A program made the position numbers and the translations under genes. Positions 1 through 55,620 of a stretch of 64,000 nucleotides of DNA are shown here, piece after piece. The DNA is from Octopus vulgaris. Taxonomy: Eukaryota. Within the stretch, counting starts at the first letter, position 1; every line of letters begins with the position of its first letter. Below the pieces are notes generated by a model, which worked only from the letters and a program-made list of their open reading frames with translations, did not search any database and was not told the origin of the DNA. The stretch is taken from the NCBI GenBank assembly GCA_951406725.2, contig OX597824.1:54870001-54934000 (forward strand). The letters are read 5' to 3'.

Positions 1-88
1 ATCGTTTCGTACTACATCATTTTATTAAATGTTGTAAGTATACGTAGATTCATCAAGGGGCATATATATATATATATATATATATATG

Positions 89-120
<32 letters not shown>

Positions 121-124
<4 letters not shown>

Positions 125-2767
125 AATCAAGGAACGGCCATAATAGGCCATTCACCCACTAGAAATAACAGCCAAAGCTTTAACCGCAAAATAACATTAA
201 TTCCGTAAACCAGGAGAAAATTAAAAAAACATTTACCCTGTAATTTCTTATACGATGCACCGTTTCATCTACTGTTTAATGGTAAACTAACCTGATTAAA
301 TTAAATCAAGCCAATCTTCCATAGGCCCTTAGATTCCTCAGTAAGAAATAGCCAGAACGGAACAGATATTTTCACGAGGCATTTCCGTCCCTGCCTCGGC
401 AATATCTGACCTAAAATTTTCAAATCATCGCACGCACCAAATTTATCGGCAGCAAATAAATATAAGCCGCCGATTCCATTACGGAATCAACCAGAAAATT
501 CATAATTAATCAATATAGGGTGGCAAAAAATTTTGTAGAATTTTTTTGCCACCAGCGGCCTAGTGGGAAAAAATTAAATAGTCATAGACCATTTATAAGT
601 TCAACATCACAATCAAGGAACGGCCAAAATAGGCCATTCACCCACTAGAAATAACAGCCAAAGCTTTAACCGCAAAATAACATTAATTCCGTAAACCAGG
701 AGAAAATTAAAAAAACATTTACCCTGTAATTTCTTATACGATGCACCGTTTCATCTACTGTTTAATGGTAAACTAACCTGATTAAATTAAATCAAGCCAA
801 TCTTCCATAGGCCCTTAGATTCCTCAGTAAGAAATAGCCAGAACGGAACAGATATTTTCACGAGGCATTTCCGTCCCTGCCTCGGCAATATCTGACCTAA
901 AATTTTCAAATCATCGCACGCACCAAATTTATCGGCAGCAAATAAATATAAGCCGCCGATTCCATTACGGAATCAACCAGAAAATTCATAATTAATCAAT
1001 ATAGGGTGGCAAAAAAAATTTTGTAGAATTTTTTTGCCACCAGCGGCCTAGTGGGAAAAAATTAAATAGTCATAGACCATTTATAAGTTCAACATCACAA
1101 TCAAGGAACGGCCAAAATAGGCCATTCACCCACTAGAAATAACAGCCAAAGCTTTAACCGCAAAATAACATTAATTCCGTAAACCAGGAGAAAATTAAAA
1201 AAACATTTACCCTGTAATTTCTTATACGATGCACCGTTTCATCTACTGTTTAATGGTAAACTAACCTGATTAAATTAAATCAAGCCAATCTTCCATAGGC
1301 CCTTAGATTCCTCAGTAAGAAATAGCCAGAACGGAACAGATATTTTCACGAGGCATTTCCGTCCCTGCCTCGGCAATATCTGACCTAAAATTTTCAAATC
1401 ATCGCACTCGCGCCAAATTTATCGGCAGCAAATAAATATAAGCCGCCGATTCCATTACGGAATCAACCAGAAAATTCATAATTAATCAATATAGGGTGGC
1501 AAAAAAAATTTTGTAGAATTTTTTTGCCACCAGCGGCCTAGTGGGAAAAAATTAAATAGTCATAGACCATTTATAAGTTCAACATCACAATCAAGGAACG
1601 GCCATAATAGGCCATTCACCCACTAGAAATAACAGCCAAAGCTTTAACCGCAAAATAACATTAATTCCGTAAACCAGGAGAAAATTAAAAAAACATTTAC
1701 CCTGTAATTTCTTATACGATGCACCGTTTCATCTACTGTTTAATGGTAAACTAACCTGATTAAATTAAATCAAGCCAATCTTCCATAGGCCCTTAGATTC
1801 CTCAGTAAGAAATAGCCAGAACGGAACAGATATTTTCACGAGGCATTTCCGTCCCTGCCTCGGCAATATCTGACCTAAAATTTTCAAATCATCGCACTCG
1901 CGCCAAATTTATCGGCAGCAAATAAATATAAGCCGCCGATTCCATTACGGAATCAACCAGAAAATTCATAATTAATCAATATAGGGTGGCAAAAAAAATT
2001 TTGTAGAATTTTTTTGCCACCAGCGGCCTAGTGGGAAAAAATTAAATAGTCATAGACCATTTATAAGTTCAACATCACAATCAAGGAACGGCCATAATAG
2101 GCCATTCACCCACTAGAAATAACAGCCAAAGCTTTAACCGCAAAATAACATTAATTCCGTAAACCAGGAGAAAATTAAAAAACATTTACCCTGTAATTTC
2201 TTATACGATGCACCGTTTCATCTACTGTTTAATGGTAAACTAACCTGATTAAATTAAATCAAGCCAATCTTCCATAGGCCCTTAGATTCCTCAGTAAGAA
2301 ATAGCCAGAACGGAACAGATATTTTCACGAGGCATTTCCGTCCCTGCCTCGGCAATATCTGACCTAAAATTTTCAAATCATCGCACTCGCGCCAAATTTA
2401 TCGGCAGCAAATAAATATAAGCCGCCGATTCCATTACGGAATCAACCAGAAAATTCATAATTAATCAATATAGGGTGGCAAAAAAAATTTTGTAGAATTT
2501 TTTTGCCACCAGCGGCCTAGTGGGAAAAAATTAAATAGTCATAGACCATTTATAAGTTCAACATCACAATCAAGGAACGGCCATAATAGGCCATTCACCC
2601 ACTAGAAATAACAGCCAAAGCTTTAACCGCAAAATAACATTAATTCCGTAAACCAGGAGAAAATTAAAAAAACATTTACCCTGTAATTTCTTAAACGATG
2701 CACCGTTTCATCTACTGTTTAATGGTAAACTAACCTGATTAAATTAAATCAAGCCAATCTTCCATAG
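121..2767 (-). repeat. Head-to-tail tandem array of a 486-490-bp unit (5 full + 1 partial), each full unit with a type I hammerhead ribozyme; retrozyme/PLE pseudo-LTR-like
   Basis: Units start with tcacaatcaagg at 121, 607, 1095, 1585, 2075 and 2564. Copies are near-identical, have no ORF >=60 aa, and follow a (TA)n tract. Confidence 0.93.
243..349 (-). ncRNA. Type I hammerhead ribozyme (also at 729-835, 1217-1323, 1707-1813, 2196-2302)
   Basis: Minus strand reads AUUUCUUA-CUGAGGA-AUCUA-(58-nt hairpin insert)-UAGAU-GAAA-CGGUGCAUCG-UA-UAAGAAAU: perfect 8-bp stem I, 5-bp stem II, near-palindromic stem III, GUA cleavage triplet. Confidence 0.9.
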
Positions 2768-2777
2768 AAATATCTTC

Positions 2778-3137
2778 CGTGAAAATATCTGTTCCGTTCT
2801 GGCTATTTCTTACTGAGGAATCTAAGGGCCTATGGAAGATTGGCTTGATTTAATTTAATCAGGTTAGTTTACCATTAAACAGTAGATGAAACAGTGCATC
2901 GTATAAGAAATTACAGGGTAAATGTTTTTTTAATTTTCTCCTGGTTTACGGAATTAATGTTATTTTGCGGTTAAAGCTTTGGCTGTTATTTCTAGTGGGT
3001 GAATGGCCTATTATGGCCGTTCCTTGATTGTGATGTTGAACTTATAAATGGTCTATGACTATTTAATTTTTTCCCACTAGGCCGCTGGTGGCAAAAAAAT
3101 TCTACAAAATTTTTTTTGCCACCCTATATTGATTAAT
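2778..3137 (+). repeat. Inverted partial copy of the array unit with HHR at 2805-2911
   Basis: Reverse complement of the unit, from cgtgaaaatatctg to accctatattgattaat, then (TA)n. HHR reads atttctta-ctgagga-atcta...tagat-gaaa-cagtgcatcg-ta-taagaaat with one stem III substitution. Confidence 0.92.
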
Positions 3138-3254
3138 ATATATATATATATATATTTATATACATATATATATATATATTTATATATTTATATATATACA
3201 TATTTATTTATATATATATATATTTATACATATTTATATATATATATTTATACC

Positions 3255-4350
3255 TATCACCAGCGAGGCAGTTACGATAGAATATATTGACATTAGTGAA
3301 GAAGATGTCCTACTAGCCATAGATGAAGTGGACACAAACTCAACTGCTGGTCCTGATGGTTTCCCAGCAATCCTCCTCAAAGTGTGTAAGCATGCCCTGG
3401 CAAAACTCCTCAAGATTCTCGTCCAGAGCTTTCTTACAAGTCTCACAGAAAATACAGAACCCCAGCGATGTTGCACACCTGCAGCAGAAGTTGGACTCAA
3501 TCTACAGATGGGCTGAGGATAATAATATACAGTTTAATGCTGAAAAATTCCAGGCCCTGCGCTACCAGCATCCCAAACTGAAAATTAAACTTACAGGGTA
3601 TACCGGTCCATAGGGAATTTCAATCCCAGAGCCTAAGTCTGTGAGGGACCTGGGTATCGACATGAGTGATGATTACCTCTTTCCAAGTGCACATTACCAG
3701 GATGGCGAAAAAGTGGAGACGACTGGCTTGATGGATCCTAAGAACATTCAGAACCAGAGATAAGGAAACCATGATTACTGCTCACAGCTATGGTCACCCA
3801 CCAGTGTGAAATTAACAGCGGACCTTGAAGCAATCCAGAGAAGATTCACAAAGAAGATCGTCTCTTTGCAACAGCTCAGCTACTGGGAAAGACTCTACTC
3901 TACTCTACTCCCTGGAGAGAAGACGGGAGAGGTATGCAGTAATATATATCTGGAAGGAATTGTGCCAAATTTTGGCATTGTAAGCTACACCAATGCTAGA
4001 ATGGGACGACACTGCATAGTGCCAAAGATCCCAGCAAAGCCATCACGCTTCAGGACCAGCTTCTGCAACAGCCTGGGTTTCAAGGACCCACAGCTTTTTA
4101 ATATTCTCCCAAAGAGTCTGAGGAACTCGCACAAAGTAGATGTAGCGGTTTTTAAATCAAAGCTGGACATCTTCCTGTTGAGAGTCCCAGATGAACCTAC
4201 CTCACGGTAAGAAGTGCAAATAAGGGTAGCTATATCAACTCCATTCTTCACCAAGTGCCACATATTTGAGGAGGCTCTTAGTAATAACAGTGTAGCACAA
4301 AACGGCGGTGCATCAGCATGGCCGTAGCACTGAGCTGAAACAAGAAAAAA
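3255..4350 (+). mobile_element. CR1-group LINE 3' fragment, internally deleted and frameshifted
   Basis: Peptides AGPDGFPAILLK, WAEDNNIQFNAEKFQAL and LEAIQRRFTKKI...VPDEP are colinear with the 48330-49985 copy. A jump near 3437 removes the RT core. Confidence 0.88.
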
Positions 4351-4842: not shown

Positions 4843-4899
4843 TATATATATATATATATAGTAAATATAAAGTAAATAAATATATATATATATATAGTA

Positions 4900-5579
4900 A
4901 ATATAAAGTAAATAAATGGTACAACGATATTTACTGGAAAATAGCAATCGTAATAAATACGACGCTATTGTATATCTTCACTGCGTATATACTAGCAAAG
5001 ACGCGTGTGTGCAACAAACATGAAAAAATTTTCGTCTTACCTCTAGGAAGAACATCTGCAAAATGGAAAACCTAATGCTGTACCGGTTTCAGACTCTTCA
5101 AATACGTTTGACAACGTATATTTGATTTGTCCTCATCAGCTGCATATACCTAGACAAAATTTCATATGTTGCCACATCTATCCCAGTACACTCGACTGAA
5201 CGCCAAAACGTTAACAGAACGATAACAGTGAAGAAGTTTCAATGAAAATAATAATGCAATACGAAAGTATTGCTTTCCAGTAAAAGATAGCCCATAAGGG
5301 TAAAATTATACATATAAAAGTAAATAAATGGTACAACGAGGCACCGATATTTACTGGAAAATAGCAATCGTAATAAATACGACGCTATTGTATAGCTTCA
5401 CTGCGTATATACTAGCAAAGACGCGTGTGTACAAACATGAAAAAAAATTTTCTTACCTCTAGGAAGAACATCTGCAAAATGGAAAAACCTAGAATCGGAT
5501 AATGCAGTACCGGTTTCAGACTCTTCAAATACGTTTGACAACGTAGATTTGATTTGTCCTCATCAGCTGCATATACTTA

Positions 5580-5582
<3 letters not shown>
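4900..5582 (-). repeat. Tandem 1.6-copy ~420-bp non-coding unit carrying two hammerhead ribozymes (5075-5145, 5502-5572)
   Basis: aagtaaataaatggtacaacga...tagaca is repeated. Minus strand reads AUGCAG-CUGAUGA-GGAC..GUCU-GAAA-CCGG-UA-CUGCAU (perfect in the 5502 copy, one stem I mismatch in the 5075 copy). Confidence 0.85.
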
Positions 5583-5631
<49 letters not shown>

Positions 5632-8220: not shown

Positions 8221-10045
<1,825 letters not shown>

Positions 10046-19843: not shown

Positions 19844-22800
19844 TGTTACACATTCATATTCATATCTATGTGTATACGTGCATAGAATACATCCCCACTC
19901 TTGGCACTATTTTGTTAGTGAATAGTAAAAACTGTGTGTAAAGTATATAATGTATTACTACGCTGGAATGTTGAGAAGTTCGTGTAACATGAATAGTAAA
20001 TAAACACGTTAAACAATAACAATGGCTTTCATTTGGTTGTCTATCCCATTAAAACCCAAACTACACATAACATGGTGGCAGCGGTAAATAATTAATCGGA
20101 AACTGTGCCTTTACAACAAAACAGAAACACAACGAACCAGAAATTTAACAAACAAAACATCGCTTCGTCTTCGGACAACACGACGATCCAAGATGGCGAC
20201 CCCCGTCGCCGTACAGATGAATCTACATCCGATTATGAATTGGGATTCCGTTGATGTCGTAGAAGCATTTAAAAAATTCAAACAGAAAACTCAACTAGCT
20301 TTCAAAAGTTTCCTGAAAGACACAACTGACGATGAGAAGGTAAGCTATATCCTTTTATGGACGGGCAATAAAGGTATAGACCTATTCAATAGCTGGGATA
20401 TGTCAGAATCGGACTGCAATAACCCAGACACACTTTTAGAGAAATTTGAAAGGCACCTAGAGCCCAGATCGAACCATAGAATTCACAGATTCGAATTCCA
20501 GGGCTTGAAACAAGACCCACAAGAAACGATTGACAATTTTCTGTCCAGACTAAAGAATGTTGCCGAAAAATGCAAATTCAAAGATAAGGACGAAAGAATC
20601 GTTGATCAATTAATATAGGGGTGTGCTCATAAGGAAGTTCAGAAATCCCTCATAGGTAAGGACGCTCTCCAGTTGATAGAAGCAGTAGACACTGCAAGAG
20701 CATTCGAAGCTACTACCAAACAAATGGCCTCACTTAGCTTACAAACAAGCTCACTAGGCAGCAGTGTAGATATTGTATCTAGGCACAGGACACATACCCG
20801 CAAACAAAGAACATGCCAGTACTGTGATATGGAGCATGAATTCAATAACCGAAAGAAATGTCCTGCATTCGGTACACACTACAAAGCATGTGGAAAACTT
20901 AACCACTGGGAAAAAAATGTGTAGGTTAACAAAATCCCAGAAAAACAAGCCCCAATTTTCAAAGAGGAGCGGAAATAGAAGAAGAGATATACATGCCCAA
21001 TAACAAGAACAAAACACCTCAGAGGAGGAATTCTTGGCAGTCGGCACAATAAATGTGCATGAGATGGGAAATGACGACCAGAGAAAAAATGAGGCATACA
21101 CAACAATAAGAATACAGAAGAAGTCTGGCAGGAAACGAATAAACATAGACTTAAGGCTAAAGATTGACACTGGAGCCCAGAGTGATATCTTACCTGTCAA
21201 CCTCAACAAAAAGATGTTCCTAGAACACATAACACAAGAGGTACGGAGGTACCAGGATTCCACAACTGGGCAAAACAACTATCACAGGGACACACAAAGG
21301 AAAAACAATCAAGTGTTCTTTTTATGTCACAAGAACAGAAGGCCCAGCAATTCTTGGACTCAATACCTGCAAAAAGCTTAATATTGTGTCAATCAATGCT
21401 GAAGTGAAAGCAGCTCCAAGCAGGATTGACAGTGATATGCCTATCAAAGATCGACCACAAATCACAAACAAAGAAGAACTGATAAGCATATACCCTGAAT
21501 GCTTTGACGATACAGTCGGGTGCTTTGTGAAACGTCGATATCATATAACAGTCGACTCCAATATCAAACCAATTGTTCACCCACCTCGCCGCGTCCCACT
21601 AGAACTAAAAGAGAAGCTGAAGACAGAGTTGGACAGAATGGAAAGAAAAGAAATAATCACCAAAGTGACACAACCAACAGACTGGGTAAATTCAATTGTA
21701 ATCAAGGAAAAACCCAATGGTACCCTACGGATATGCTTCGACTCAAGGGACCTGAACAAAGCATTAAAAAGAGAGCACCATCGAATTCCAACCCTTGAAG
21801 AAATCACACCATCATTAGCTGGATCCAAATTATTCAGCAAACTGGATGCCAGCAATGGGTACTGGAATATAAATATAGACAAAGAGTCATCCATGCTCAC
21901 TACCTTCAACACACCATTTGGTAGATATCGATTCAACCGACTCCCATTTGGATTGAAGGTGAGCCAAGATGTTTTCCAGCGCCAAATAGATGAGGCCTAT
22001 CAAAGCTGGAAGGGAGCAATTGGAATAGCAGATGACATCCAAGTGCATGGCAAGGATGAAACCACACATGACTTCAATTTACATGAAGCTATGGAGAAAA
22101 CCCGACAAGCAGGCATCAAACTCAATGCAGACAAGTGTGTGATAAAAGAAAAGGAGTGCAAATTCTTTGGAGTTATATACTCTGCAGAGGGAGTTAAACC
22201 AGACCCCGCTAAAGTGGAAGCCATCTGAGACATTAAAGAACCCAAAGACAAGAAGGAACTCAGGAGCTTCATGGGACTCATCCACTACATGGGAGCCTTC
22301 ATACCCAAGCTGGCCGATCACACTGCAAATCTCCGAGAACTAAACAAAGATGACGTAGAGTTTGATTGGTGTGCTTCACACACACAGGATTTCAAAGCAA
22401 TCAAAAAGCTCATCAGTAAGGAGACAACTCTGCAATATTATGACAGACGTAAGCCAGTAACACTCCAAGTCGATGCTTCTGTGAGAGGAGTTGGCGCAGC
22501 ACTGATACAAGAAGGTAAACCCATTGCATATGCCTCGAAAGCTCTCTCACCCACAGAGACAAGGTACGCGAATATTGAAAGGGAACTCCAGGCAGTAGTA
22601 TATGGATGCGAAAAGTTCCATACATACCTGTATGGCGGACATTTCAATATAGAAACAGACCATCGCCCGCTAGAACAAATACATAGAAAAAACCTGACAA
22701 AAGCACCAGCCAAACTGCAAAGATTACTGTTAAGGCTTCAAACATACGACTATGATATCAGGTACAAGCCAGGAAAAGACCTGATATTGGCGGATGCTCT

Positions 22801-24584
22801 TTCCAGACTATCCTCACATGATAAGCAGGAGATGGAAGGACTAAGCATAAAGGTCCACCACATTGTAAATGTGACAACCACAAAGCTAGCGGAAATCAAA
22901 GAGGAGACCAGCAAAGATGAAGAACTTCAGCTCCTCACTCAGATGGTGATTCAGGGGTGGCCAGAAAAGAGACATCAGGTGCAGCCCCTAATTCGTGAAT
23001 ATTGGGCCATCCATGATGATATATCAGTGGAGAATGGAATCCTGATGGCTGGATCCCGGAATAATTATACCCAAGTCAATGCAAAAAGAGATTCTTGACA
23101 AGATCCACCAAGGGCATCTAGGAATGGAGAAATGCAAGCTCCGAGCCAAGTCAGCAGTATATTGGGTAGGCATGTACAAAGACATAGAAAAGACAGTTTC
23201 TACATGCCACATCTGTCAAAAGTACAGAAACTCACAACAAAAGGAGGAAATGATATCTAGTGACATCCCAAGAAGGCCATGGCAAACTATTGGAGTAGAT
23301 CTGTTCACAGAGGGCTAAGAATGATATTTGATAATGGCCTGCTACTACTCCAAATTTCCATTTGTGAGAAAAGTGAAAGACCTGACAGCCAAAACAATCA
23401 CTACAGTGGCTCGAGGACTTCTAGCAGAGCAAGGAATACCAGAGCAGATCATATGTGACAATGGAACCCAGTTCACATCACAAGAATTCAAAAAGCTAGC
23501 CGATGAGTATGGGTTCAATATCACAACCTCATCTCCACACTACCCCAAAAGTCATGGGTTTATAGAAAGACAGGTACAGACAGTGAGGAGAACACTTGTC
23601 AAATGCCGAGAGACTAAGGAAGATCCACACCTGGCACTTCTGTCCCTACGAGCGACACCACTGAGAGCTGACATGAAATCCCCAGCAGAATTGCTGAATG
23701 GCAGTAAGTACAAAACTACCCTACCAACTAAGATCCAACCTCCTATTGACCAGGAAGAGACAAGGGCAAAGTTAGCAGCCACTCAAGAACAATCACAGAG
23801 GTATTACAACAAACACGCACAATATTTACCTGAGATACTTGGAGGACAACATGTGCCTACTCAAGATCCCATAACTAAAACATGGATCCCAGCACAGGTT
23901 GTCAGTAGAGCTGAAACTCCAAGATCATATATAATAGAAACGGAATCTGGTGGGCAGCTGAGACGTAACAGAGCCCACATCCGCCCAACACCAAAGCTGT
24001 CGAGGACAACGTGTACAACACCTGCTGCATCCGTGACAACACCCACAGAATCATCACCCCAACGGGCACAAACCGCCTATCAGCAGCCCAACAACACACT
24101 TCAGACACCGGTGCGAAGCACAAGATCCACCAGATGGAGAAAGAACATTCTGCCACCGGTTCGATACCGTTAAGGGAAAAAAAAGCCAAAATGAAAAGAT
24201 AAGTAACAAATTCAGCTAGACTACAAAGCAGAGGCAGAATAATCTCACGATTTCTGCTGTAGGATTGCCACCTCAGGCTGACAATCCATTAGAGTAAGGG
24301 AGACTACTCATAATTGTCTTCACTGCCAGAAGACCCCTTTATTTTTTTCAAGAAGAAGGGATGTTACACATTCATATCTATGTGTATACGTGCATAGAAT
24401 ACATCCACACTCTAGGCACTATTTTGTTAGTGAATAGTAAAAATTGTGTGTAAAGTATATAATGTATTACTACGCTGGAATGTTGACAAGTCCGTGTAAC
24501 ATGAATAGTAAATAAACACGTTAAACAATAACAATGGCTTTCATTTGGTTGTCTATCCCATTAAAACCCAAACTACACATAACA
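19844..24584 (+). mobile_element. Full-length decayed Ty3/Gypsy LTR retrotransposon (gag-PR-RT-RH-IN)
   Basis: LTRs 19844-20072 and 24362-24584; PBS TGGTGGCAGCGG (tRNA-Leu-like); PPT agaagaaggga; protease IDTGA; RT LPFGL and IADD; RH VDAS and TDHRPL; integrase HHCC and CDNG..F. Many stops and frameshifts. Confidence 0.96.
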
Positions 24585-24670: not shown

Positions 24671-26200
24671 TAGAAGCAACAAGAATGGATTAGTTTTTAG
24701 TACAATTGTTTCATACAAAGACAGGCTTTATTAAAATTTGCAAAAATTGCAGCAGATAAAAGTGTCCCGTACTCATCAGCTAAAATACATATGAGTTCTC
24801 CAAACATCTTAGTGGGTGAGGCTATACTCATGAAGTATTGGAGATAATTTCATTATTTTCAATATAATAGACAATTCCATCACACCTTGTTAACTAAATT
24901 CTAAGTTTTGACCGGTAGTCTGTCAATGTATGGATAGTAACGGCAACAATTTAAGACAGTAACAGGAATAAATAAATAAATAAATTTAAATTACCTCTTG
25001 TTAAGGTTGCACTTAGATTTTTTCTCTTAATGTATTCCCTTTGATGATAGCTTTTGATCCCTCTACCCCTGACCTTGTTATCTCTTTAGATTCTCTTTAG
25101 ATTCATATCTGCTTTCAACTACGTCAGGTTGGCAATAAATAGCTGTTTTACTGGTCAAAAATAATTTTCTCCTCATAGTTCCTGGATTCTTACAAATTCA
25201 AGCTAGCCAGGCCGTCTACAAATTCTTCTGTAGTTGGTCACTTTAGAACCCCCTTTCCCTCTAAGTTGTCACAGTATACTCTATGTGGGCGTTTTTTCTT
25301 TTCTCCCTTCTTCCCCTTTTTTCTTTTTTCTTTTTCTTTTCTTCTCCCCGTTTTTCTTTTTTCTTTTTCTTTTCCTTTTTTCTTTTTCTTTTCCTTTTTT
25401 CTTCTTCTTTTCCTTTTTCTTTTTCTTTTTTCCTTGTCTCTTTTTTTTCCTTGTCTCTTTTCTCCTTTTTCCTTTCTTTTCTTTTCTTTGCTCCACAAAA
25501 AATTCCTTCAGCCTTTAGAAGTCATAACATAGCAGTTTTGCGTAGAGAACAGTAATGTGGCAAATACCTTATCATATAGCATGAAATGATTGTGGATTAA
25601 CCATGGATAAATTCATCGTCTGTGAGTATGAAATTCCTCCTCATATCTCTGGAAATTTAAATCTACACTACGGATTAATTCACCTTCTCTGTGAAGCTAA
25701 TAAGCTTTTAAAAACCTGTGATAAGTCTGTGTATCATCCTCCTCATATCTCTGGAAATTTACATCTACACTACGGATTAATTCACCTTCTCTGTGAAGCT
25801 AATAAGCTTTTAAGAACCTGTGATAAGACTGTGCATCATCATTAAAGAACTTTGGAAATCTGTTTGCAACCGAAATCTGCCTTTAATGAAATTATCTCCA
25901 ATACTTCATGAGTATAGCCTCACCCACTAAGATGTTTGGAGAACTCATATGTATTTTAGCTGATGAGTACGGGACACTTTTATCTGCTGCAATTTTTGCA
26001 ACTTTTAATAAAGCCTGTCTTTGTATGAAACAATTGTACTAAAAACTAATCCATTCTTATTGCTTCTTTCTCGTTTATAATCACCCCACATTACTGTATG
26101 GTTAACACCATATAGTTTTCTGGTGCATCTAAGTTAAGTACCATATTCAAGTAAATTCATTGGAATTGACTTGAATCTTAATTGCTTTTATATATATTTA
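24671..26200. mobile_element. PLE remnant bounded by ~185-bp inverted repeats, each with an intact HHR (24695-24785 minus; 25954-26044 plus)
   Basis: UUUUAG-CUGAUGA-GUAC...GUAU-GAAA-CAAUUG-UA-CUAAAA occurs in both arms (24672-24855 and 25884-26067). There is an internal ~100-bp tandem duplication at about 25635-25840. Confidence 0.85.
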
Positions 26201-26229: not shown

Positions 26230-27122
26230 TTTTACCTTGTTAACAATTAACACGGAAAAAAAAATAGTTACCGGGGTTGCAAAAATCTCACAAGTAAAGA
26301 GGTTGTAACTCCTTGTTTATAAAGGTAGAAACTTCGGGTTTACGTGGAATATTTTGAATAATATATGAATAAATATATGGAGTTTAACGCAGGTGTAAAC
26401 CAAATATTTTTACTTTCGACACATGTTTCGAAAATTCCACTGATACTATTCAAAAGAATAAATGGTATAAACAATGCAATCTTCTCTTCAGGAAAGTGAA
26501 AAAAACGAAACTCGTCAGTAAGACATTTTAGCAAAAAATGATGGATTTGTATAGCGATTGACTGAACGCTATTAATATTGTTTAAAAAAAACGTTATATG
26601 ATATAACGTCATAGGTAGCTTATAGAAAGAGTAGGGATATTAATAGTGAATGTAAATATAAAGGAAATTAAAGTTTAAATTATATATAATGATAGAGACT
26701 ACTTATATGCACTAAATGTGTGTTTTTGCCAATGTTTACATTGCTCGCTCTATAACCGTGTTTACTAGGGGATTTTTAGAAAAAATAATGAAAAATAGCT
26801 CAGAATTGCAGAGAAGACAGAATTCCTTGCCAAATCAGTTTGCTGAGACCGGTGGATAGAGATAACTCTAACGATGTGCTTCCAATTTAAAATCGTACTT
26901 TATTACGATTTAAGATTTATGGAAGGTTTATGGTATGGGAAGTACGAGTTATTTTGTAAATTGAGAGTAATGTCTAAGAAGTTGGCTTTAGTTAACTCAT
27001 CGTCAAAAACGATGTGCAATCCCATTCTACTAAAAAACCTAACTAATCTACTCTTAACCTTCTGTATTTTTTGATTTGAAATGTTTTGGTGGTACAGCAG
27101 ACAATCGTCATGACAAAGCCCT

Positions 27123-27125: not shown

Positions 27126-27168
<43 letters not shown>

Positions 27169-27214
27169 AAACAAGTCAAAAATAGAAAATGCTAAAATAA
27201 TTTTATAGTGAACA

Positions 27215-27258
27215 TTTCAGTACCGGTTTCGGTCATTTTGAGACCTTTTCAACTGTAA
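27215..27258 (-). ncRNA. Minimal HHR, U3:A8 covariant (second copy at 31533-31576)
   Basis: UUACAG-UUGAAAA-GGUC(ucaaaau)GACC-GAAA-CCGG-UA-CUGAAA, with palindromic ACCGGU stem III. Confidence 0.8.
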
Positions 27259-27900
27259 CGATTAAATAATTAAATTTAGAAAAATTAGAAGAAAAGTTTT
27301 TTTAAAAGAATATTTCTATAGTAGTGTTCAGATTTAAGTGGCATTCTGCCTTTCTCTGACTCCCTTGTTTGCACTTGTGCGTTGGAGGTCGTTGTGAGTT
27401 CTTGGTAGGGTAGTAGAGGAAGAAGGCTGGTGAGGAAAGGGGGGTGGAAGAATCTGGGAGTGCCCTGATGGTCGTATTTTGAATGGTCAGTGGCGGCTGG
27501 CAGTCTCAGTTCAATTCAGGAGAATATTTATATTGACAGGCTTGTTTATAGAATTAGCGTAGGTGTTATACTAAAAAACATTAGTGACAAAGTTAAGGGG
27601 TAGGGGGTGGAGAAGTAGAAGAAGAAGGAGAAGAAGAAGAAGAAGAAGAAGAAGAAGAAGAAGAAGGAGAAGGAGAAGATGACGATGATGGTGATGGTGG
27701 TGATGATTATGACGACGATGATGATGATAATAATGATGATGAAGAAGAAGAAGAAGGAGTAGAAGGAGAAAAAAACAGAGAAGGGAGAATATGAATGGGT
27801 GTAAGTATAGCTATGAAGGGGCTGATTAGTAATGGATTCTATGGAGTGTAATATTTGTGTGTGTATATATATTTTTCTTTTATTCTAAAGTTGAGGTATA

Positions 27901-30219
27901 TTAATTGTTTATCGTAGACCCGTTAAGAAGTGGCTTGTATTTTGTAATAAAGAGATTTTCTTTACTTATTCGTTGTCTCGAGGTTGTATCGTCCCTAAAT
28001 TGGTAGAGGGGGAAAATTCTGAAGTTTGGTGTTTTTTTGTTGGCGCAAGTATCTATGTGTTGGCTAAAAGCTATTTTTCTGTTTTGGGGAATTTTTATCT
28101 GGGATCTGTGCAGGGCCATTCGTTTACGCAAACCATTTTTTGTTTGGCCTATGTACTGCTCTTGACACCCGGAGCAGGTTAGTGAGTATATTAGGTTCTC
28201 CGAAGCACATGTGAAGTTGCTTTTCACTGTAAACCGTTGTCCCTGTTTGAAGGAGAACTCTGATCCCTCAATTAGATAGTCGCATATCCCGCAATTGGGT
28301 CTTCCACATTTTTTTACTGTCGGCTTCTGTGTTGAAGAGTGAATTCGGGCTTGTGTAAGGAGACTTTTCATGGATCTAGGCTGTCTTTTGCTTTTTATGA
28401 TCGTGTGTGTTTGGAGGATTGTGTTCATTCTGTGGTCTTTTTTTAGGAGGGGTATGTTGTGGAGGATGGTGTCGACGGCTTCGTTATTGAGAGGGTTGTG
28501 TGTGGAGATGTATGGTAAGGCTTTTGGTTGTAAGTTTTTCTTTGATTTGGGATGTCTCAGTTCCTTGATGTTAAGTTGAAGGGCACGTTGAATGCACTTG
28601 TCAATAAGTGAAGGTGCATAGTTCCTGGTGATAAGGGTATCTTTTAGTTCTTGTAGTCGTGTGTCTCTGGTGTTTGCGTTAGAGACTATAGTGCATATCC
28701 TTTTTGCTAGATTGAAGGGGATATTCATCCTGGTGTGTCTGGGGTGGCATGAATTGAATGGAAGATATTGCTTAGAGTCTGTAGGCTTATAGTATATGTC
28801 TGTTTCTATTATATTATTAGCTTTCTTAATGAGGATATCGAGGAAGGGGAGTTGTTGTTGGCTATATTCCATCGTGAATTGGATATTTACGTCCAGTCCG
28901 TTTAAAATTTTCTGGAATTCTATGAGTTTTTCTATATTTTTATGCCAAAGGATGAAACAGTCATCTAGATATCTCTTCCAGTTGTTTTCTATGTAGATGG
29001 AGAAAGGGCTGCCATATCTTTCTAGAACCTTACGATACAGACTGATCTCTAGGTATCCTATGACTAGGTTGGCAAAGGAGGGGGCCATTCGTGTACCCAT
29101 CGCCGTCCCCGATTTTTGTCGGTAGAAGTTGTCATTGAAGGCGAAGAAGTTATTTTCCAGGATGAATTTAACCCCTTCTATCACAAATTCTTTTTTGATG
29201 CGGTGTGGTAGTTCGTTGGCGTGATTCTCTAGCCAGAATTGGATTGCCTCTAGTCCTAGGTTGTGGGGGATATTGGAGTAGAGGTTGACTACATCGAAGG
29301 ATACCAGTATGGTGTTTTTGTTTATAGTATTCGGCATATCTAAGTCGTCCCTTATATAGCTTTTGACATGTTTGAGGAGTGGTTTTAACAGGGTGTCTAA
29401 AAAGTTACTGAGGCGGTGGGTTTCGCATGCGGGACCTGCTATTATGGGTCTCAATTTGAGGTCATTAGGATTAGGGACTTTAATTATTTTGTCTGTAGCT
29501 ATCTTGCATGCGCTGCTTATTTTTTCACTTTTGTGGATCTTAGGTATACCGTAGAATTGGCTAGTTTTACTTGTGAAATTGGTCATATAATCATATTCTT
29601 TGTCGGTGAGCCCTGCTTTGTATGGGTTTAATATGGATTTTAGTTCCCTCATTATTTTTTGTTGACTGTAGTTTTGTGCCTTTTCATAGTATGTTGTGTC
29701 TTCCAGCATAGAAAGTACCAAAGTTATGTAAAATGTCGTATCCATTAAGACAACAGCACTCCCTTTATCGGCCTCTTTGATTGTTATTGTTTTATCTTGT
29801 TTTAATTTGTTCAACTCAGCCCATTCTTTTTTGCTGAAGTTTGGTTTGTGTTTTTGTTTGTGCATATGTTGATATGGGTAATTTGATATGTGGTCACAGA
29901 AATCATCAAGTGTTTTATTCTTACCTTTCGAGGGGGTGTAGTTACTCCTATTTCTGGCTAACGATTCGTCCTCGTTGTATTTATCGTATAGCTCCTCAGT
30001 AAGTCTTAATTTTCTGCAGAATTCTGCGATGTCTTCTTTCATTTCATTGTAGTTGGGGTGTTGTGGGGTGGGTGTAAACTTGAGTCCTTTGGAAAGTATG
30101 TTTATTTGGTTTGCTGTTAGTTCCTTGTGAGTTAGATTAATAAATTTTATTACTTTTGGTTCCTCCTGCTTGTTTGGTGCTATCTTGTGTCTCTGTGTTT
30201 GCGTATTGGGTCTAAAAAA
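27901..30219 (-). CDS. PLE reverse transcriptase + GIY-YIG endonuclease; the reading frame is open well upstream of the first ATG at 30042
   Basis: LSKGLKFTPTP (upstream of the ATG), ADKG, PKIHK, RPII, SFDVVNLY, GTAMG, RYLDD, FLDI, CGRPNCGIC, LIYSLTCSGCQEQYIGQT and PLLN, with no internal stops. Confidence 0.93.
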   Translation of the reverse strand, partial: FFRPNTQTQRHKIAPNKQEEPKVIKFINLTHKELTANQINILSKGLKFTPTPQHPNYNEMKEDIAEFCRKLRLTEELYDKYNEDESLARNRSNYTPSKGKNKTLDDFCDHISNYPYQHMHKQKHKPNFSKKEWAELNKLKQDKTITIKEADKGSAVVLMDTTFYITLVLSMLEDTTYYEKAQNYSQQKIMRELKSILNPYKAGLTDKEYDYMTNFTSKTSQFYGIPKIHKSEKISSACKIATDKIIKVPNPNDLKLRPIIAGPACETHRLSNFLDTLLKPLLKHVKSYIRDDLDMPNTINKNTILVSFDVVNLYSNIPHNLGLEAIQFWLENHANELPHRIKKEFVIEGVKFILENNFFAFNDNFYRQKSGTAMGTRMAPSFANLVIGYLEISLYRKVLERYGSPFSIYIENNWKRYLDDCFILWHKNIEKLIEFQKILNGLDVNIQFTMEYSQQQLPFLDILIKKANNIIETDIYYKPTDSKQYLPFNSCHPRHTRMNIPFNLAKRICTIVSNANTRDTRLQELKDTLITRNYAPSLIDKCIQRALQLNIKELRHPKSKKNLQPKALPYISTHNPLNNEAVDTILHNIPLLKKDHRMNTILQTHTIIKSKRQPRSMKSLLTQARIHSSTQKPTVKKCGRPNCGICDYLIEGSEFSFKQGQRFTVKSNFTCASENLIYSLTCSGCQEQYIGQTKNGLRKRMALHRSQIKIPQNRKIAFSQHIDTCANKKTPNFRIFPLYQFRDDTTSRQRISKENLFITKYKPLLNGSTINN

Positions 30220-31466
30220 TGAATGCGGTGGTTGGGACGGTAGCTAGTATATAGTTGTTCTTTGTTGATTAGGGGTCTCCTGTTGTGATTTATGGTGTGT
30301 GTTCTTGGAGCAGTATTGAGGAGAGCATCCCGATATCCCATATTCGGGTGTGGTGTTCTAGGAGGCCTTCGTTGGTAATCATTGCAAGTGGTGTGGGTTT
30401 GTTGTGCATGGTTGTTTAACCGGTTAATGGGACGAAGATTTCGTTGGTAACTCCTTTGGGTGGGGATGAGGTTGCAGTGTCTATGCTGTGGGTGTTGATT
30501 TATCCTTTCTCTGCTTGAAGTGGGGGTATTCCTGATATTGTATCGCTGGCTGCTTACAGAGTTAGGGTTAGGTCCTGTATTCTTTTTTTGATAGTAGTGA
30601 AGGTTCCGATTTTTAGACAGGTGTGTATCGGTGTTTGGGTGTTGTTTTGGTTTTCTTATTTTCTGGAAAGGGTTGTTGGAGGCGTGCTCTGTTTGAAAGA
30701 CGGCTTCATAGTCTGAGAACCAAGTGGCGCTTTTCTCCCAGCGTTGGAGAGATTTTAGTTCTTCTTTTTCACAGTCCTCTTTCCATAGTTTGGAGAACTT
30801 CTCTTGATCTGGGCCTTGGGTCATTTTGCGAATTTCTTCGTTGATATCTTCATCGGTGGATTTTATTTTATCCTCATTCGTTTGGGCCCTCAATTTCAGA
30901 AGTTCTATTTCCATTTTCATTTTTTCCAGTGCCATTCTCTCCCTGAGGTGTCTTTGTGTTTCAGGTTCTTCTGTAATAGCTTTGAACTGGAATTTACGTG
31001 GGAGGATTAACGGGGTCCGGTTGAGCCATTTTTCGTATATATCCGCTTTGTTGTTGTTTTGGATCATCTTCCAAAAGGCGAACTTTCTATCTCTGAGTGA
31101 TTTGTTCCATTGTGGTATTATGTGGTGTTTCATTTGGTATGTTGTTAGAGTATTGATCCCATATATTGACGCGTTTGGAGGTCCTTGGTTAGCGTTGTTA
31201 GAGAAAAATGTTCTAATTGTTTCGCATAAGTTTCCAAGGTTTTCGACAATTTCGGAGGTTGTATTTTTCGTATCTGTTTCTTCATTGTTCTCTCGATTGG
31301 GTTGAAGTGTCGAGTCGAATTTGTTCAAAAAAGTTGACAAATTTGTGTTGATTTTCTTGAGTTCTTTCAGTATTTCTTCGTTTATGGAGGTGATTGTGTC
31401 TGTTTTTGTCGGCATTTTCTGTATCTCGTGTGGGTTAATGATATGTATAAGGGTGAAAAGGAACAC
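30180..31466 (-). CDS. PLE upstream ORF1 (428 aa; charged helical/coiled-coil middle, basic N/R/Q/H-rich tail); likely ATG start at MPTKTD
   Basis: Uninterrupted ORF between the 5' pLTR and RT. It overlaps the RT frame by ~40 nt after the slippery site. Function is inferred only. Confidence 0.8.
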   Translation of the reverse strand: MFLFTLIHIINPHEIQKMPTKTDTITSINEEILKELKKINTNLSTFLNKFDSTLQPNRENNEETDTKNTTSEIVENLGNLCETIRTFFSNNANQGPPNASIYGINTLTTYQMKHHIIPQWNKSLRDRKFAFWKMIQNNNKADIYEKWLNRTPLILPRKFQFKAITEEPETQRHLRERMALEKMKMEIELLKLRAQTNEDKIKSTDEDINEEIRKMTQGPDQEKFSKLWKEDCEKEELKSLQRWEKSATWFSDYEAVFQTEHASNNPFQKIRKPKQHPNTDTHLSKNRNLHYYQKKNTGPNPNSVSSQRYNIRNTPTSSRERINQHPQHRHCNLIPTQRSYQRNLRPINRLNNHAQQTHTTCNDYQRRPPRTPHPNMGYRDALLNTAPRTHTINHNRRPLINKEQLYTSYRPNHRIHFLDPIRKHRDTR

Positions 31467-32250
31467 ACGAGTTGATATATATGAAAAAACAAGTCAAAAA
31501 TAGAAAATGCTAAAATAATTTTATAGTGAACATTTCAGTACCGGTTTCGGTCATTTTGAGACCTTTTCAACTGTAACGATTAAATAATTAAATTTAGAAA
31601 AATTAGAAGAAAAGTTTTTTTAAAAGAATATTTCTATAGTAGTGTTCAGATTTAAGTGGCATTCTGCCTTTCTCTGACTCCCTTGTTTGCACTTGTGCGT
31701 TGGAGGTCGTTGTGAGTTCTTGGTAGGGTAGTAGAGGAAGAAGGCTGGTGAGGAAAGGGGGTGGAAGAATCTGGGAGTGCCCTGATGGTCGTATTTTGAA
31801 TGGTCAGTGGCGGCTGGCAGTCTCAGTTCAATTCAGGAGAATATTTATATTGACAGGCTTGTTTATAGAATTAGCGTAGGTGTTATACTAAAAAACATTA
31901 GTGACAAAGTTAAGGGGTAGGGGGTGGAGAAGTAGAAGAAGAAGAGAAGAAGAAGAAGAAGAAGAAGAAGAAGAAGAAGAAGGAGAAGGAGAAGGAGAAG
32001 ATGACGATGATGGTGATGGTGGTGATGATTATGACGACGATGATGATGATAATAATGATGATGATGAAGAAGAAGAAGAAGAAGAAGGAGGAGGAAGGAG
32101 GAGAAGGAGAAGATGGTGGTGATGATGGTGGTGATGATGATGACGACGATATTTATTTATTTATTTATTTATATTTATTTATTTATTTATATATATTTAT
32201 TTATTTATTTATATATATTTATTTATATATATATATAAATATATAAATAA

Positions 32251-51988: not shown

Positions 51989-54900
51989 AAATATTATTGG
52001 TGAATTGAAGAAATGGAGCTGAACGAAGATTGAACAGAAATCGTTTTATTTCATTCTACACGTGTTTCGAAAGGCACAATTTACCAAAATCCGATTGAAT
52101 AATGAGACCATATTATGTCTTTCTCTTCAGGAAGAAATAGGAAATCCGTTGGAAAAAACAAAAACAGAACAGAGGCGGAGCAAAACAAATCGAACTAGGC
52201 TCCTAAGAGCCCATGGCAAAACTGTTTATCAGTGTATGTTGAGAACCGGTGGTTGAAGATTTTAACGGGTCAGGCAGCGGTCATTCCTGTGGGTGAGGGT
52301 GTGTAGATGTTCTTTGTGACCGAGAATAAAGTTCTGACTATTTAAGGAATATTGGATGTTTTATAAGGGGCGAGAAAAAATCTACTTAGAGACATGTGTG
52401 TGTTTACTGTTCTATATATGTGTGCTGGCGCAGGTTGGCAAGACCTCCGTCAAGGGGTAGAAAACATTTTTTGTGTACGTGTGTGCGTTTGATCGCTCGG
52501 CTGTCAGTGGTTAAGCCGCTCTACACAATGGCTACTGCAGTAAGAACCGTTGGGTGACAGAAAAAAATATATTATGTTTTATGTGTGCGTGTGTTCGTCT
52601 GAACCTGCCTTGTCAAGGAAACCCCCCGTCGTCAAAAAACATAGCCTCGTTTATCTTACAGGAGTAATTCCCCTTGCAGTGGTTAATCGTAATTATCTTA
52701 AAGGCTATTTCAGAATTTGTTACCAAGGGCTATGGGTGCAGGTATTATTTATAAACGCTATTTAAAAGCCAGATAAGTGTAACGCCGCCAGTGGGGGCAT
52801 CGAAAAGCCGACTGTAAAAGTCCGTTTACCATCCAGCCTCTGGCGAACAAAATATGGAAGAGTTCGGAGACACAAAGGTTGCACTTCCTTCTGCCCCTAT
52901 CAAATGGGAGGGCCACCGACAAAATTGACCATTCCAGCCTGTAGCTTGAGTTCGTATCCTTCAATCGCCATATTAGCTTGCTGAGTCCCGTGGTCTGGCG
53001 CTTGTTCATGTCCCGAAAAGTTGCGTAATGATTGGAGATTCGCAAAGCCAATCTTGACGATGAGGCCCCTACATAAGTGTAGACATCTGAGTCCGTGTAA
53101 ACCTTGCATTGGTAGACGGCGTTTCTGATCTTGGAGTTCGTCGACGTGAATCTTATTCTGCTAGGATTAGTTTCTGAAATTAGAACTGCGTTCCTGTCAC
53201 TATATTTGTTACGAGAACTGCAGCCGCTTACTACTTTATTTTCCACTACGTCACTATTAACTAACGGAATAACCCCTGATTCTCCACTATCTATCAGAAT
53301 GCTGTCATTGCTAGTGCCCGTGGTGCTGCTATTGCGGGAAATGATGCTGGGGTTGCTATTGGGGCTCTCTACCCTACTCCCATTGTTACCGTCAACCACA
53401 GCACCCCTATTTATAACTATACCCCTAGTGTGTACTCCCTGGCTGGAGCTGAGATTATGTGTCACTGTACTGGCTCTCATATCATTATTACTACTATAAT
53501 TATTCCTACTGAGCATTAAACCGGGAGCGGAAGAGGCTGTGCCTCTGGAAAAAGGTGATAGGGTCTTAGTAAGTAGCCTATTATTATGGGAGGCGATTAT
53601 CTGGGCGAGGTTTTTAGTGTTGGAGAAAGCTATCCTAACTTTATGCGAGTTAACCGTGGAGTAATATTTGGAATTTCTGGGGAAGTTATTGGCGATGGCT
53701 TGTCTAAACATGAGGGGGAGGTTAGTTCTAATCTGCTTACCAAAGGGAATTACAAACCATATATGCTTATTCCTATCTGTGTGATGGGTCGGGACGCCAG
53801 CTCTCGCGTTCGGGTGGGTGATTCTCGGATGAATAACGGGTTTTGGGTTAGTGTGAGATCTCCCGGACCGATAATTATCCTTGTTCGCTAAATTAAATGC
53901 GGGAGCGACTGCCTCAGCACCCGCCGCGCTCCCGTCCCTACTTAAATTGTTTATGTTATTATAGACGGCCCTATCCTGATGACCGAATGATGGCATCGGA
54001 AGGGCCGGATCAATATAAATTACCTTCTGCCTATAACCGGCCTTGGATAGTGCGGCGTTATAAAATTCCGCTTTCTGCATAAAAATATCGGCACTGGCGG
54101 ACAAGCCAGACAATCTTAGAGAGATGTTTTTAACCAAATTGTCTGTTACGGTTTTGGCATGATTTGAGAAGACACTGACATACTTCAAATTAGTGGAAGG
54201 CTTATGGTAAGGGCAGTATGAGTCGCTATTAAGGTTAAGTGTAACGTCTAGGAAATTAGCCTTGGTGAGTTCATTATCAAAAACTATACTCATGCCCATT
54301 CTATTAAAAAACCTAGCTAACCTGCTCTTAGTTTTCTGCACTATTCTGTTCGTGGTGTTTTGCAGGTAAAACAGACAATCGTCACGATACAGGCCGCCCG
54401 CGATCTCCGGGAATTGGTCGGACAATTCGTAGAGAATATATATTCCGACCAAATCGGCTATCTGCGCACTATCCGAACTACCCATAGGCACATCAAATTC
54501 ATTGGGAGTATCTTTACGGATCCACAACTCACTATCAAACTTAAACGATTTCCTGGCAACTAAAATGATATCTATCTCTTCTCTGGTGAGGCCAGCCTTG
54601 TTGTGAGCATGCCAAAGGGCCTTATTTAGCACACTAGGGTTAATCGAGGGGTAGAAGCTGGCGATATCAAACTGAATGAACCTAGTACGGTTCTTATTGG
54701 GGATGGAAGAGAATCACTTCACTACCTGCGAGGAGTTGGCCCAGAGGCTGAGCTTCAGCTTGTTTACTAAACTAGGGATATATTTATCTAAAATGTACTT
54801 ACTGATTATCCCGATATCAGAGCTAGCAGGGCATATGAGTCTTAGCGCTGGGTTGGTGTGGAAGTTCGGTTTATGGTCCTTCACTATAAATCTGGGTTGC

Positions 54901-55620
54901 TTAGGGCTAAGCGGCTGAGTTCTCATTTGAATTCGGTGTTTAAATATTATTTCCTTAATTTCCAAGTTTACCTTCCTCAGGGTACTCCAATTGGTTTTTC
55001 TATAATTTTTCTTGATCTCTTTACCGAGTAAATCTAGGTACTGCTTAATGGGTAGCTTGTATGTGTTCCTGGTCTTGTCGGACTGGACCAGGACTCCGTC
55101 CGTTCTATTAATGTCCTTGGTAATTTTATCTAGGTAACTGAGGTGGGCATTTCTCCTGGGTGACTTCCTGAACTTAATCTTTCTAACTATGTCCCACAAG
55201 TCGTCCTCAAACTTCTTCAGTCTTGGGTTAGGTGGCGGCGTATCCAATGTTTTAAAAGCCGGCCGTATTCGGACGATGCTGTTGTCCGGTTCGATTTTAG
55301 ATCTTCGTTCTCGTGGAAGAAAACGAGCCATCTTATCCGGTTTATGAATGCGTTGGTTTTACAAACCAACTCCTTAAGGAAGGCGTCCTTCGGTGGTATG
55401 TAGAATGAAATGAAATAAAACGATTTCTGTTCAATCTTCGTTCAGCTCCATTTCTTCAATTCACCAATAATATTTTAATTTCAATTATCCGCACCAACGC
55501 ACGGTTGCAACACCATATGGTTGTACCTCCAACCGTGCTGTCTTCTGCTGTGATTTTTGCTACCAAGGTATCGGTTAAACTTTTGATTAATCTGCTACAA
55601 GATTATTCATCTTCCTATTT
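51985..55620 (-). mobile_element. Penelope-like element (Naiad-like RT + C-terminal GIY-YIG) with 3' HHR and inverted 5' end; one nonsense codon and one frameshift
   Basis: FINRIRW, QSDKT, VKDHKPNF, RLICPA, FDIASFYPSI, FDVPMGS, LYRDD, VYQC..YVGAS, TGLSKLIWRLK, CNLC and CPH. TGA at 54714-54716 and a frameshift near 55260. Confidence 0.9.
52046..52140 (-). ncRNA. Type I hammerhead ribozyme in the PLE 3' region
   Basis: AUUUCUUC-CUGAAGA-GAAAG..CUUUC-GAAA-CACGUG-UA-GAAUGAAAU, with palindromic ACACGUGU stem III. Confidence 0.85.

Follow-up and report, generated by a model that had tools for sequence, protein, structure and literature searches.

A 490-bp hammerhead repeat of Octopus vulgaris as a non-LTR retrozyme family with signs of paired priming by a Penelope-like enzyme

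Positions 121 to 3137 of the window, the 64,000-nucleotide stretch of Octopus vulgaris DNA analysed here, hold a tandem array of non-coding units that carry hammerhead motifs and end in an inverted copy. The locus poses two questions: to what class of element does the repeat belong, and what template and mode of priming gave it two orientations? The reading that we favour as probable is that of a non-LTR retrozyme for which the enzyme of a Penelope-like element (PLE) primes the two strands of the target on a single continuous RNA that is probably circular.

The array begins with five full units of 486, 488, 490, 490 and 489 bp (121-606, 607-1094, 1095-1584, 1585-2074 and 2075-2563), the fourth of which serves as the reference for unit coordinates, and continues into a 204-bp partial unit (2564-2767) that spans unit positions 1-204, lacks CUGAGGA and has GUU at the cleavage triplet. 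Together these form Arm A (121-2767), in which the ribozyme sense is the minus strand and the outer end is unit position 1, referred to below as start site A. Tandem Repeats Finder (TRF) describes the array with a period of 490, 5.4 copies and 99% matches. The GC content of the unit is 36.5%, and the longest stop-free frame of the entire array has 61 codons (34 when started by ATG). An insert of 10 nt (2768-2777) that resembles nearby unit sequence, and may represent a templated insertion, separates Arm A from Arm B. Arm B (2778-3137, plus strand) is inverted, measures 360 bp, and contains unit positions 387-490 followed by 1-256. Its outer end, start site B, thus lies at unit position 387 and not at 1, and the stretch between the two start sites remains at this end as a tail of 104 nt (3034-3137). 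Microsatellites of (TA)n flank the arms at 62-120 and 3138-3252 (repeat finding calls the tracts to 121 and from 3136, respectively). These results agree with an earlier note on this DNA, which had described a non-coding tandem array of ~488-bp units abutting (TA)n at both ends. The 360-bp inverted terminal copy that it reported is also present, with a complementarity to the array of 99-100%, but is better read as a regular second arm that was independently primed.

Each full unit contains a complete type I hammerhead on the minus strand (243-349, 729-835, 1217-1323, 1707-1813 and 2196-2302), with the cores that the same note had claimed. Stem I has 8 bp and is followed by CUGAGGA (plus-strand 335-341 in unit 1); stem II has a 5-bp base with an extension of ~60 nt and is followed by GAAA; stem III is closed by a UGCA loop; and the GUA triplet ends at plus-strand position 251 in unit 1, which places the predicted cut between 251 and 250. 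A sixth complete motif, with one mismatch in stem III, is found in Arm B (2805-2911, plus strand). An Rfam scan of 121-3137 returned no hammerhead match even at E<=1, likely a consequence of the long stem II extension, while conservation and covariation of the motif were evident in an alignment of 75 units (the reference plus a single unit per locus from 74 loci with a near-full unit, others being excluded) that were 83-100% identical. Eleven positions of the hammerhead core were 99-100% conserved and N17 was A in 70 units and C in 5; N7 was free to vary (U in 31, G in 26, C in 12 and A in 6). Changes on both sides of a pair were found in stem I (CG in 55 and UA in 17; UA in 51 and CG in 22), stem II (AU in 50 and GC in 16), and stem III (GC in 52 and AU in 5), in counts of sequences and not of independent events, as the changes are carried by a few subfamilies. 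The pair that opens stem II, which is usually G-C in hammerheads, was A-U in 63 and A-C in 12 of the 75 units. Since core and stems are conserved across subfamilies, cleavage is probably under selection.

Folding predictions add a qualification. The monomer that runs from cleavage site to cleavage site is predicted to fold much better than its shuffled versions (z = -6.8; 0 of 100 shuffles as good), and the active ribozyme fold, when constrained in isolation, lies 3.1 kcal/mol above the minimum. In the consensus fold a competing helix forms between the cleavage region and sequence upstream of it. The active ribozyme is consequently not favoured in the predicted folds. As judged from its sequence, the hammerhead of the 490-bp family is nevertheless very probably an active ribozyme. 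Note that eight of nine predicted frog retrozymes failed to cleave in the study of Li, Clavereau and Pollet (2026, 10.64898/2026.07.22.740005).

The repeat is dispersed, as the earlier note had anticipated. In the searched genome (2.80 Gb in 227 contigs) the unit had at least 204 matches at 95-100% identity when 40 of 1,419 candidates were scored, and the motif pattern had 2,151 matches genome-wide, while its reversed control had 0. Identity to the unit falls to 83-88% in an older subfamily, and several subfamilies, down to 83% identity, all occur as pure arrays. The unit sequence is also present in sequencing runs under four organism labels, none of which is recorded as RNA. All 29 bins of the unit are covered by contigs from eight runs (five presumed to be RNA runs), but strand, level and circularity are not readable from contigs, and coverage of the joint between units is uninformative about RNA because the joint also exists in DNA. 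A literature search, which left most subscription journals and Repbase outside its scope, found neither a report of the 490-bp family nor haplotypes used as evidence of paired priming. We conclude that the repeat is a new family of a known class, the non-LTR retrozymes. The claim of a retrozyme-type family with PLE-type insertion is upheld by dispersal and covariation, by insertion into (TA)n, by a tail confined to one end, and by an end rule that an autonomous PLE shares (see below). A plain satellite is ruled out by dispersal, fixed ends and covariation, and an assembly artefact by the same structure at about 100 independent loci.

The architecture of the insertions was studied in four sets of loci: 40 loci selected by likeness to the window unit (set 1), 37 from a position-ordered motif list of contig C1 covering its first 122 Mb (set 2), 27 selected by likeness to the old subfamily (set 3), and 20 loci with a B end and no other pattern matches (set 4). 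Start site A was taken to lie at unit position 1 or up to a few bases ahead of it, and start site B at positions 380-391. An automatic classifier applied to sets 1-3 (n = 104) gave 71 loci with an A end and a B end, one with two A ends and none with two B ends; one end was unclassified in 30 loci and neither end was classified in 2. In other words, 71 of the 72 retrozyme loci with both ends classified pair an A end with a B end, 104-111 nt apart, and inspection by eye showed that the sole exception, L041, has a stuttered B start. In set 4, read by eye, 13 of the 20 loci were A+B, 6 had a B end without an A arm, one was of another kind and none was B+B. Two-armed loci therefore pair A with B, and insertions with a single arm also occur. 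Genome-wide end patterns on the reverse strand gave 460 A and 790 B matches, figures that do not constitute a ratio because the A pattern is stricter and misses the starts of the old subfamily; these counts do not confirm a 1:1 relation of A to B.

Arms have median lengths of 634 and 538 bp, and the longer arm can be either one. Where the arms meet, 17 of the 32 junctions printed for set 1 overlap by 1-9 nt (one by 30), and the remaining junctions have inserts or short unaligned continuations. The family loci examined have (TA)n flanks, and target duplications of 11-16 nt were visible in 6 of 17 hand-picked loci. At the arm ends of three loci (L035, L041 and L276), short stretches of 7-17 nt occur in three or four copies, a pattern like that of re-priming by a reverse transcriptase.

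What was copied at these start sites? The arms cross the cleavage site 315 times, and in only one of these passages is there a deletion at the site. Arms end at unit positions 125-135 in 2 of 190 cases, with about 4 expected by chance. Because reverse transcription read through the cleavage site and ends do not accumulate there, the template was continuous, either a circle or an uncut multimer. The same figures (315 passages, one deletion, no accumulation of ends) rule out template jumping between cut linear monomers. The earlier note had interpreted the array as the imprint of rolling-circle-like copying of a circular RNA; this interpretation is favoured here, and a linear multimer would also provide a continuous template.

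The main competitor of the circle holds that PLE priming at two sites took place on an uncut linear transcript of an array, that later unequal exchange lengthened and homogenised the arrays, and that the ribozyme has a minor role in copying. The variants carried by the units bear on this proposal from both sides. Variant records of set 1 comprise 66 variants that every covering unit of a locus carries (7 of these private to one locus), 23 that are partly shared between units and 133 that occur singly. Partly shared variants, 36 across three sets, some of them alignment noise, are found mostly in neighbouring units. They are present in units 1-3 of the window array, and match across the two arms in L037 and L058, as copying from a linear multimer could leave them. 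One monomer circle would give rise to them only with the help of a later conversion. The lizard PLE tested in vitro in PMC11167929 furthermore worked mainly on uncut RNA, local amplification has been proposed by Li et al. (2026, 10.64898/2026.07.22.740005), and the competing helix of the predicted fold could slow cleavage. Against the linear transcript, an inherited variant is almost always carried by every unit of the two inverted arms, and 20 of the 23 partly shared variants of set 1 are confined to one locus. Loci with almost no internal divergence can moreover have long arms (3,523 bp at 0.1% and 2,956 bp at 0.13%), arms of the older subfamily are shorter, and loci with higher internal divergence do not have longer arms (rho -0.18, p 0.16, n 66), divergence being an imperfect clock in tandem arrays. 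The probable selection on cleavage speaks against it as well. We regard the linear transcript as unlikely, and the monomer circle as probably the main template.

The two arms of a locus share their haplotype. Among 453 marker comparisons in set 1 they differed once; permutation gave a mean of 65 and a minimum of 34. With wider markers, arms differed at 0.5%, 1.3% and 3.7% in the three sets (30, 21 and 15 loci), for which permuted rates were 2.6%, 19.2% and 18.5%, respectively. Agreement was not uniform; arms differed at 5 of 114 markers in L186 and at 5 of 48 in L165, and only 4 of 15 old-subfamily loci had identical arms. A shared haplotype by itself would also be expected if only one arm had been copied from RNA and the inverted arm were a self-primed fold-back of it, with the second end set by endonuclease resolution. 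We therefore examined loci with sequence private to each arm. In 12 of 76 two-armed loci, each arm has 15 nt or more that are absent from the other, which makes fold-back impossible. Seven of these loci had at least 8 markers, and in them the arms differed in 6 of 314 comparisons against 15.6% under permutation, with only 2 of 5000 shuffles as low. Since arms agree even where fold-back is impossible, both were copied from RNA of one haplotype, most simply from one RNA molecule, the alternative being two molecules from one source locus. Fold-back does explain shared haplotypes directly; self-priming is the origin put forward in PMC3846280 for PLE structures with inversions, and PMC8557442 puts forward endonuclease resolution as the source of the tail; mirror symmetry is seen at a few junctions (L020 and L023), and the locus in the window is itself compatible with it. 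However, either arm can be the longer one, and the tail has been mapped in vitro to two start sites of the reverse transcriptase (PMC11167929). With the arm-private sequences, this makes fold-back very improbable as the origin of the second arm.

The reading of two-strand priming on one continuous RNA can be laid out as a series of steps. An array would be transcribed on its ribozyme strand, and the hammerhead would cut the RNA into 490-nt monomers that a host ligase closes, a step suggested by conservation of the motif and by analogy to retrozymes of other animals. A PLE protein with RT and GIY-YIG domains would then nick both strands of a (TA)n tract and start two cDNAs on the RNA, one from site A (position 1), its partner from site B (380-391). 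That these sites exist and occur as a pair is observed; priming on both strands is very likely. Each cDNA would proceed across the cleavage site, a read-through that is observed, and through several units. The cDNA ends would be joined by microhomology, sometimes with a templated insert, as the observed junctions suggest for this repair route. Later slippage or conversion would add some of the variants that units have in common. A more specific version, in which a dimer of the PLE enzyme holds one circular RNA at two fixed sites ~107 nt apart and both cDNAs roll in a single event, is conceivable and to us a little short of an even call. Were it true, the family would be a genomic record of ribozyme-made circles as an actual intermediate of retrotransposition, and PLE integration would be obligately asymmetric, with one tailed and one untailed end.

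In twin priming of LINE-1 elements, two primers act on one RNA and produce an inversion joined by microhomology. The octopus family differs from this process in that its start sites are fixed and both arms re-copy the same sequence through several units. A further parallel is PAc, the Poseidon element of the green anole (Frangieh et al. 2024, PMC11167929), for which the in vitro work describes two internal start sites, extension of both strands and a predicted dimer. As in the octopus family, two start sites define the tail and the target is AT-rich. The PAc start site is strand-independent, however, and uncut linear RNA is used, whereas here A pairs with B with hardly an exception and both arms have one haplotype. 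For genomic PLEs, an inverted copy is described together with a tail that is often at one end (Craig et al. 2021, PMC8557442; Arkhipova et al. 2013, PMC3846280), and the origin of tandem and inverted PLE structures is named as an open point in PMC8557442. Elements of the Neptune/Nematis type described in these two papers resemble the octopus family in their head-to-head inversion, a tail at one end only, microsatellite targets and a hammerhead near the end, and the PLE in the window shares the end rule. The octopus arrays differ from them in having no ORF, a tail of 104-111 nt instead of 30-40, and no detectable likeness in sequence to the pLTRs sampled.

Animal retrozymes have been described as non-autonomous PLE derivatives of 51-972 bp (10.64898/2026.07.22.740005), and their RNA circles have been shown in coral, mussel and axolotl (Cervera and de la Peña 2020, PMC7229834). 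The octopus family shares with these metazoan non-LTR retrozymes the dispersed tandem non-coding units with one type I hammerhead each, a GC content of 37%, long target duplications where visible, the proposed PLE helper, and the proposal that tandem cDNA is made from a circle, which PMC7229834 puts forward for animal retrozymes without showing it. The 490-bp unit exceeds the RNAs of 170-400 nt of PMC7229834 and falls within the range of 10.64898/2026.07.22.740005. In contrast to the retrozymes compared, the octopus motif has a long stem II extension that probably defeats Rfam. The structure of two arms and two start sites is absent from the portions of those accounts drawn on here ('inverted' appears 0 times in the main text of PMC7229834). 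Given that the class is known, the family itself is a modest find, and its mechanistic footprint is the added value. It bears on the circle as a template of retrotransposition and on the origin of tandem and inverted structures in PLEs. Because the family is young, polymorphic and present in many copies, haplotypes can be compared within it, and these comparisons speak for priming of both strands on a single continuous RNA and against fold-back, which they exclude wherever a locus permits the test.

The window also contains a young, near-complete PLE (27157-32115, minus strand), with an upstream frame of 437 aa, an RT-GIY-YIG frame of 780 aa, and terminal repeats of ~640 bp that are 97% identical and bear a hammerhead-like motif of the U3-A8 type. 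The GIY-YIG match of the 780-aa frame is weak (21.2 bits, below the cut-off), and the atlas neighbours of this frame have RT and GIY-YIG families; a PDB sequence search with the ORF gave no match. A CxxxxCxxC motif before GIY-YIG in its predicted protein would fit the Neptune/Nematis type of PMC8557442. The PLE family has 104 scored copies at 98-100% identity, many with an open frame of 784 aa. Ends were read by eye at 18 of its loci, of which 5 were one-armed and 3 two-armed but cut off or unclear. In all ten two-armed loci that were readable at both ends, one end was at reference position 86 and the other at 120, so that this PLE follows the end rule of the retrozyme with a tail of 34 nt. 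One retrozyme locus, L165, offers a lead: its B arm contains a 50-nt piece (3883-3940 of the locus) that is 80% like the terminal repeat of the window PLE and begins exactly at the first base after the predicted hammerhead cut of that PLE. A pattern search for further chimeras of this kind found L165 alone; this one case, in an error-rich arm, suggests a template switch onto cut PLE RNA. A PLE of the Neptune/Nematis type is likely to act as the helper, and the young family with a copy in the window may, at somewhat less than even odds, be the one. The retrozyme family supplies a short RNA substrate, and the PLE a young and intact candidate enzyme.

A related possibility, that the unit serves as pLTR for an autonomous PLE and the arrays are amplified by-products of it, had been raised in the earlier note; the PLE would here be one outside our sample. 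Frog retrozymes resemble pLTRs (Li et al. 2026, 10.64898/2026.07.22.740005), and our PLE comparison covered some of the families of the genome. BLAST of the unit against 62 and 40 PLE loci revealed no likeness to their pLTRs, the exceptions among the 102 loci being one separate 53-nt insertion and one weak AT-rich match. In the loci sampled by tblastn and ORF scans, which covered the surroundings of family loci and the 20 loci of set 4, no unit runs into a PLE ORF, and the PLE ORFs near family loci are separate insertions. Several subfamilies that consist of pure arrays also speak against the by-product origin, which we consider the most remote of the explanations weighed here.

Other elements of the window deserve mention. 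An unrelated hammerhead repeat (4898-5583, minus strand) forms a partial dimer with a spacing of ~420 bp and 88% identity that ends in (TA)n and has a weak match to Rfam HH9 (20.3 bits). A third hammerhead-like element upstream of the array (690-960 of L016, reaching into window positions 1-61) lies, as read by eye, between (TA)n runs and has an inverted partial copy. A hammerhead motif at 26496 (minus strand) adjoins a 184-bp inverted repeat and a 102-bp dimer (24672-26067). PLE-like fragments of two more families occur on the minus strand, at 8779-9363, whose family has many identical copies with 775-aa frames, and at 52758-55358, a putative Naiad. Tandem repeats lie in the 3' region of a further PLE family, whose frames have 781 aa. 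Finally, broken frames of an LTR retrotransposon (20088-24173, plus strand) have RT, RNase H and integrase motifs that can be recognized by eye.
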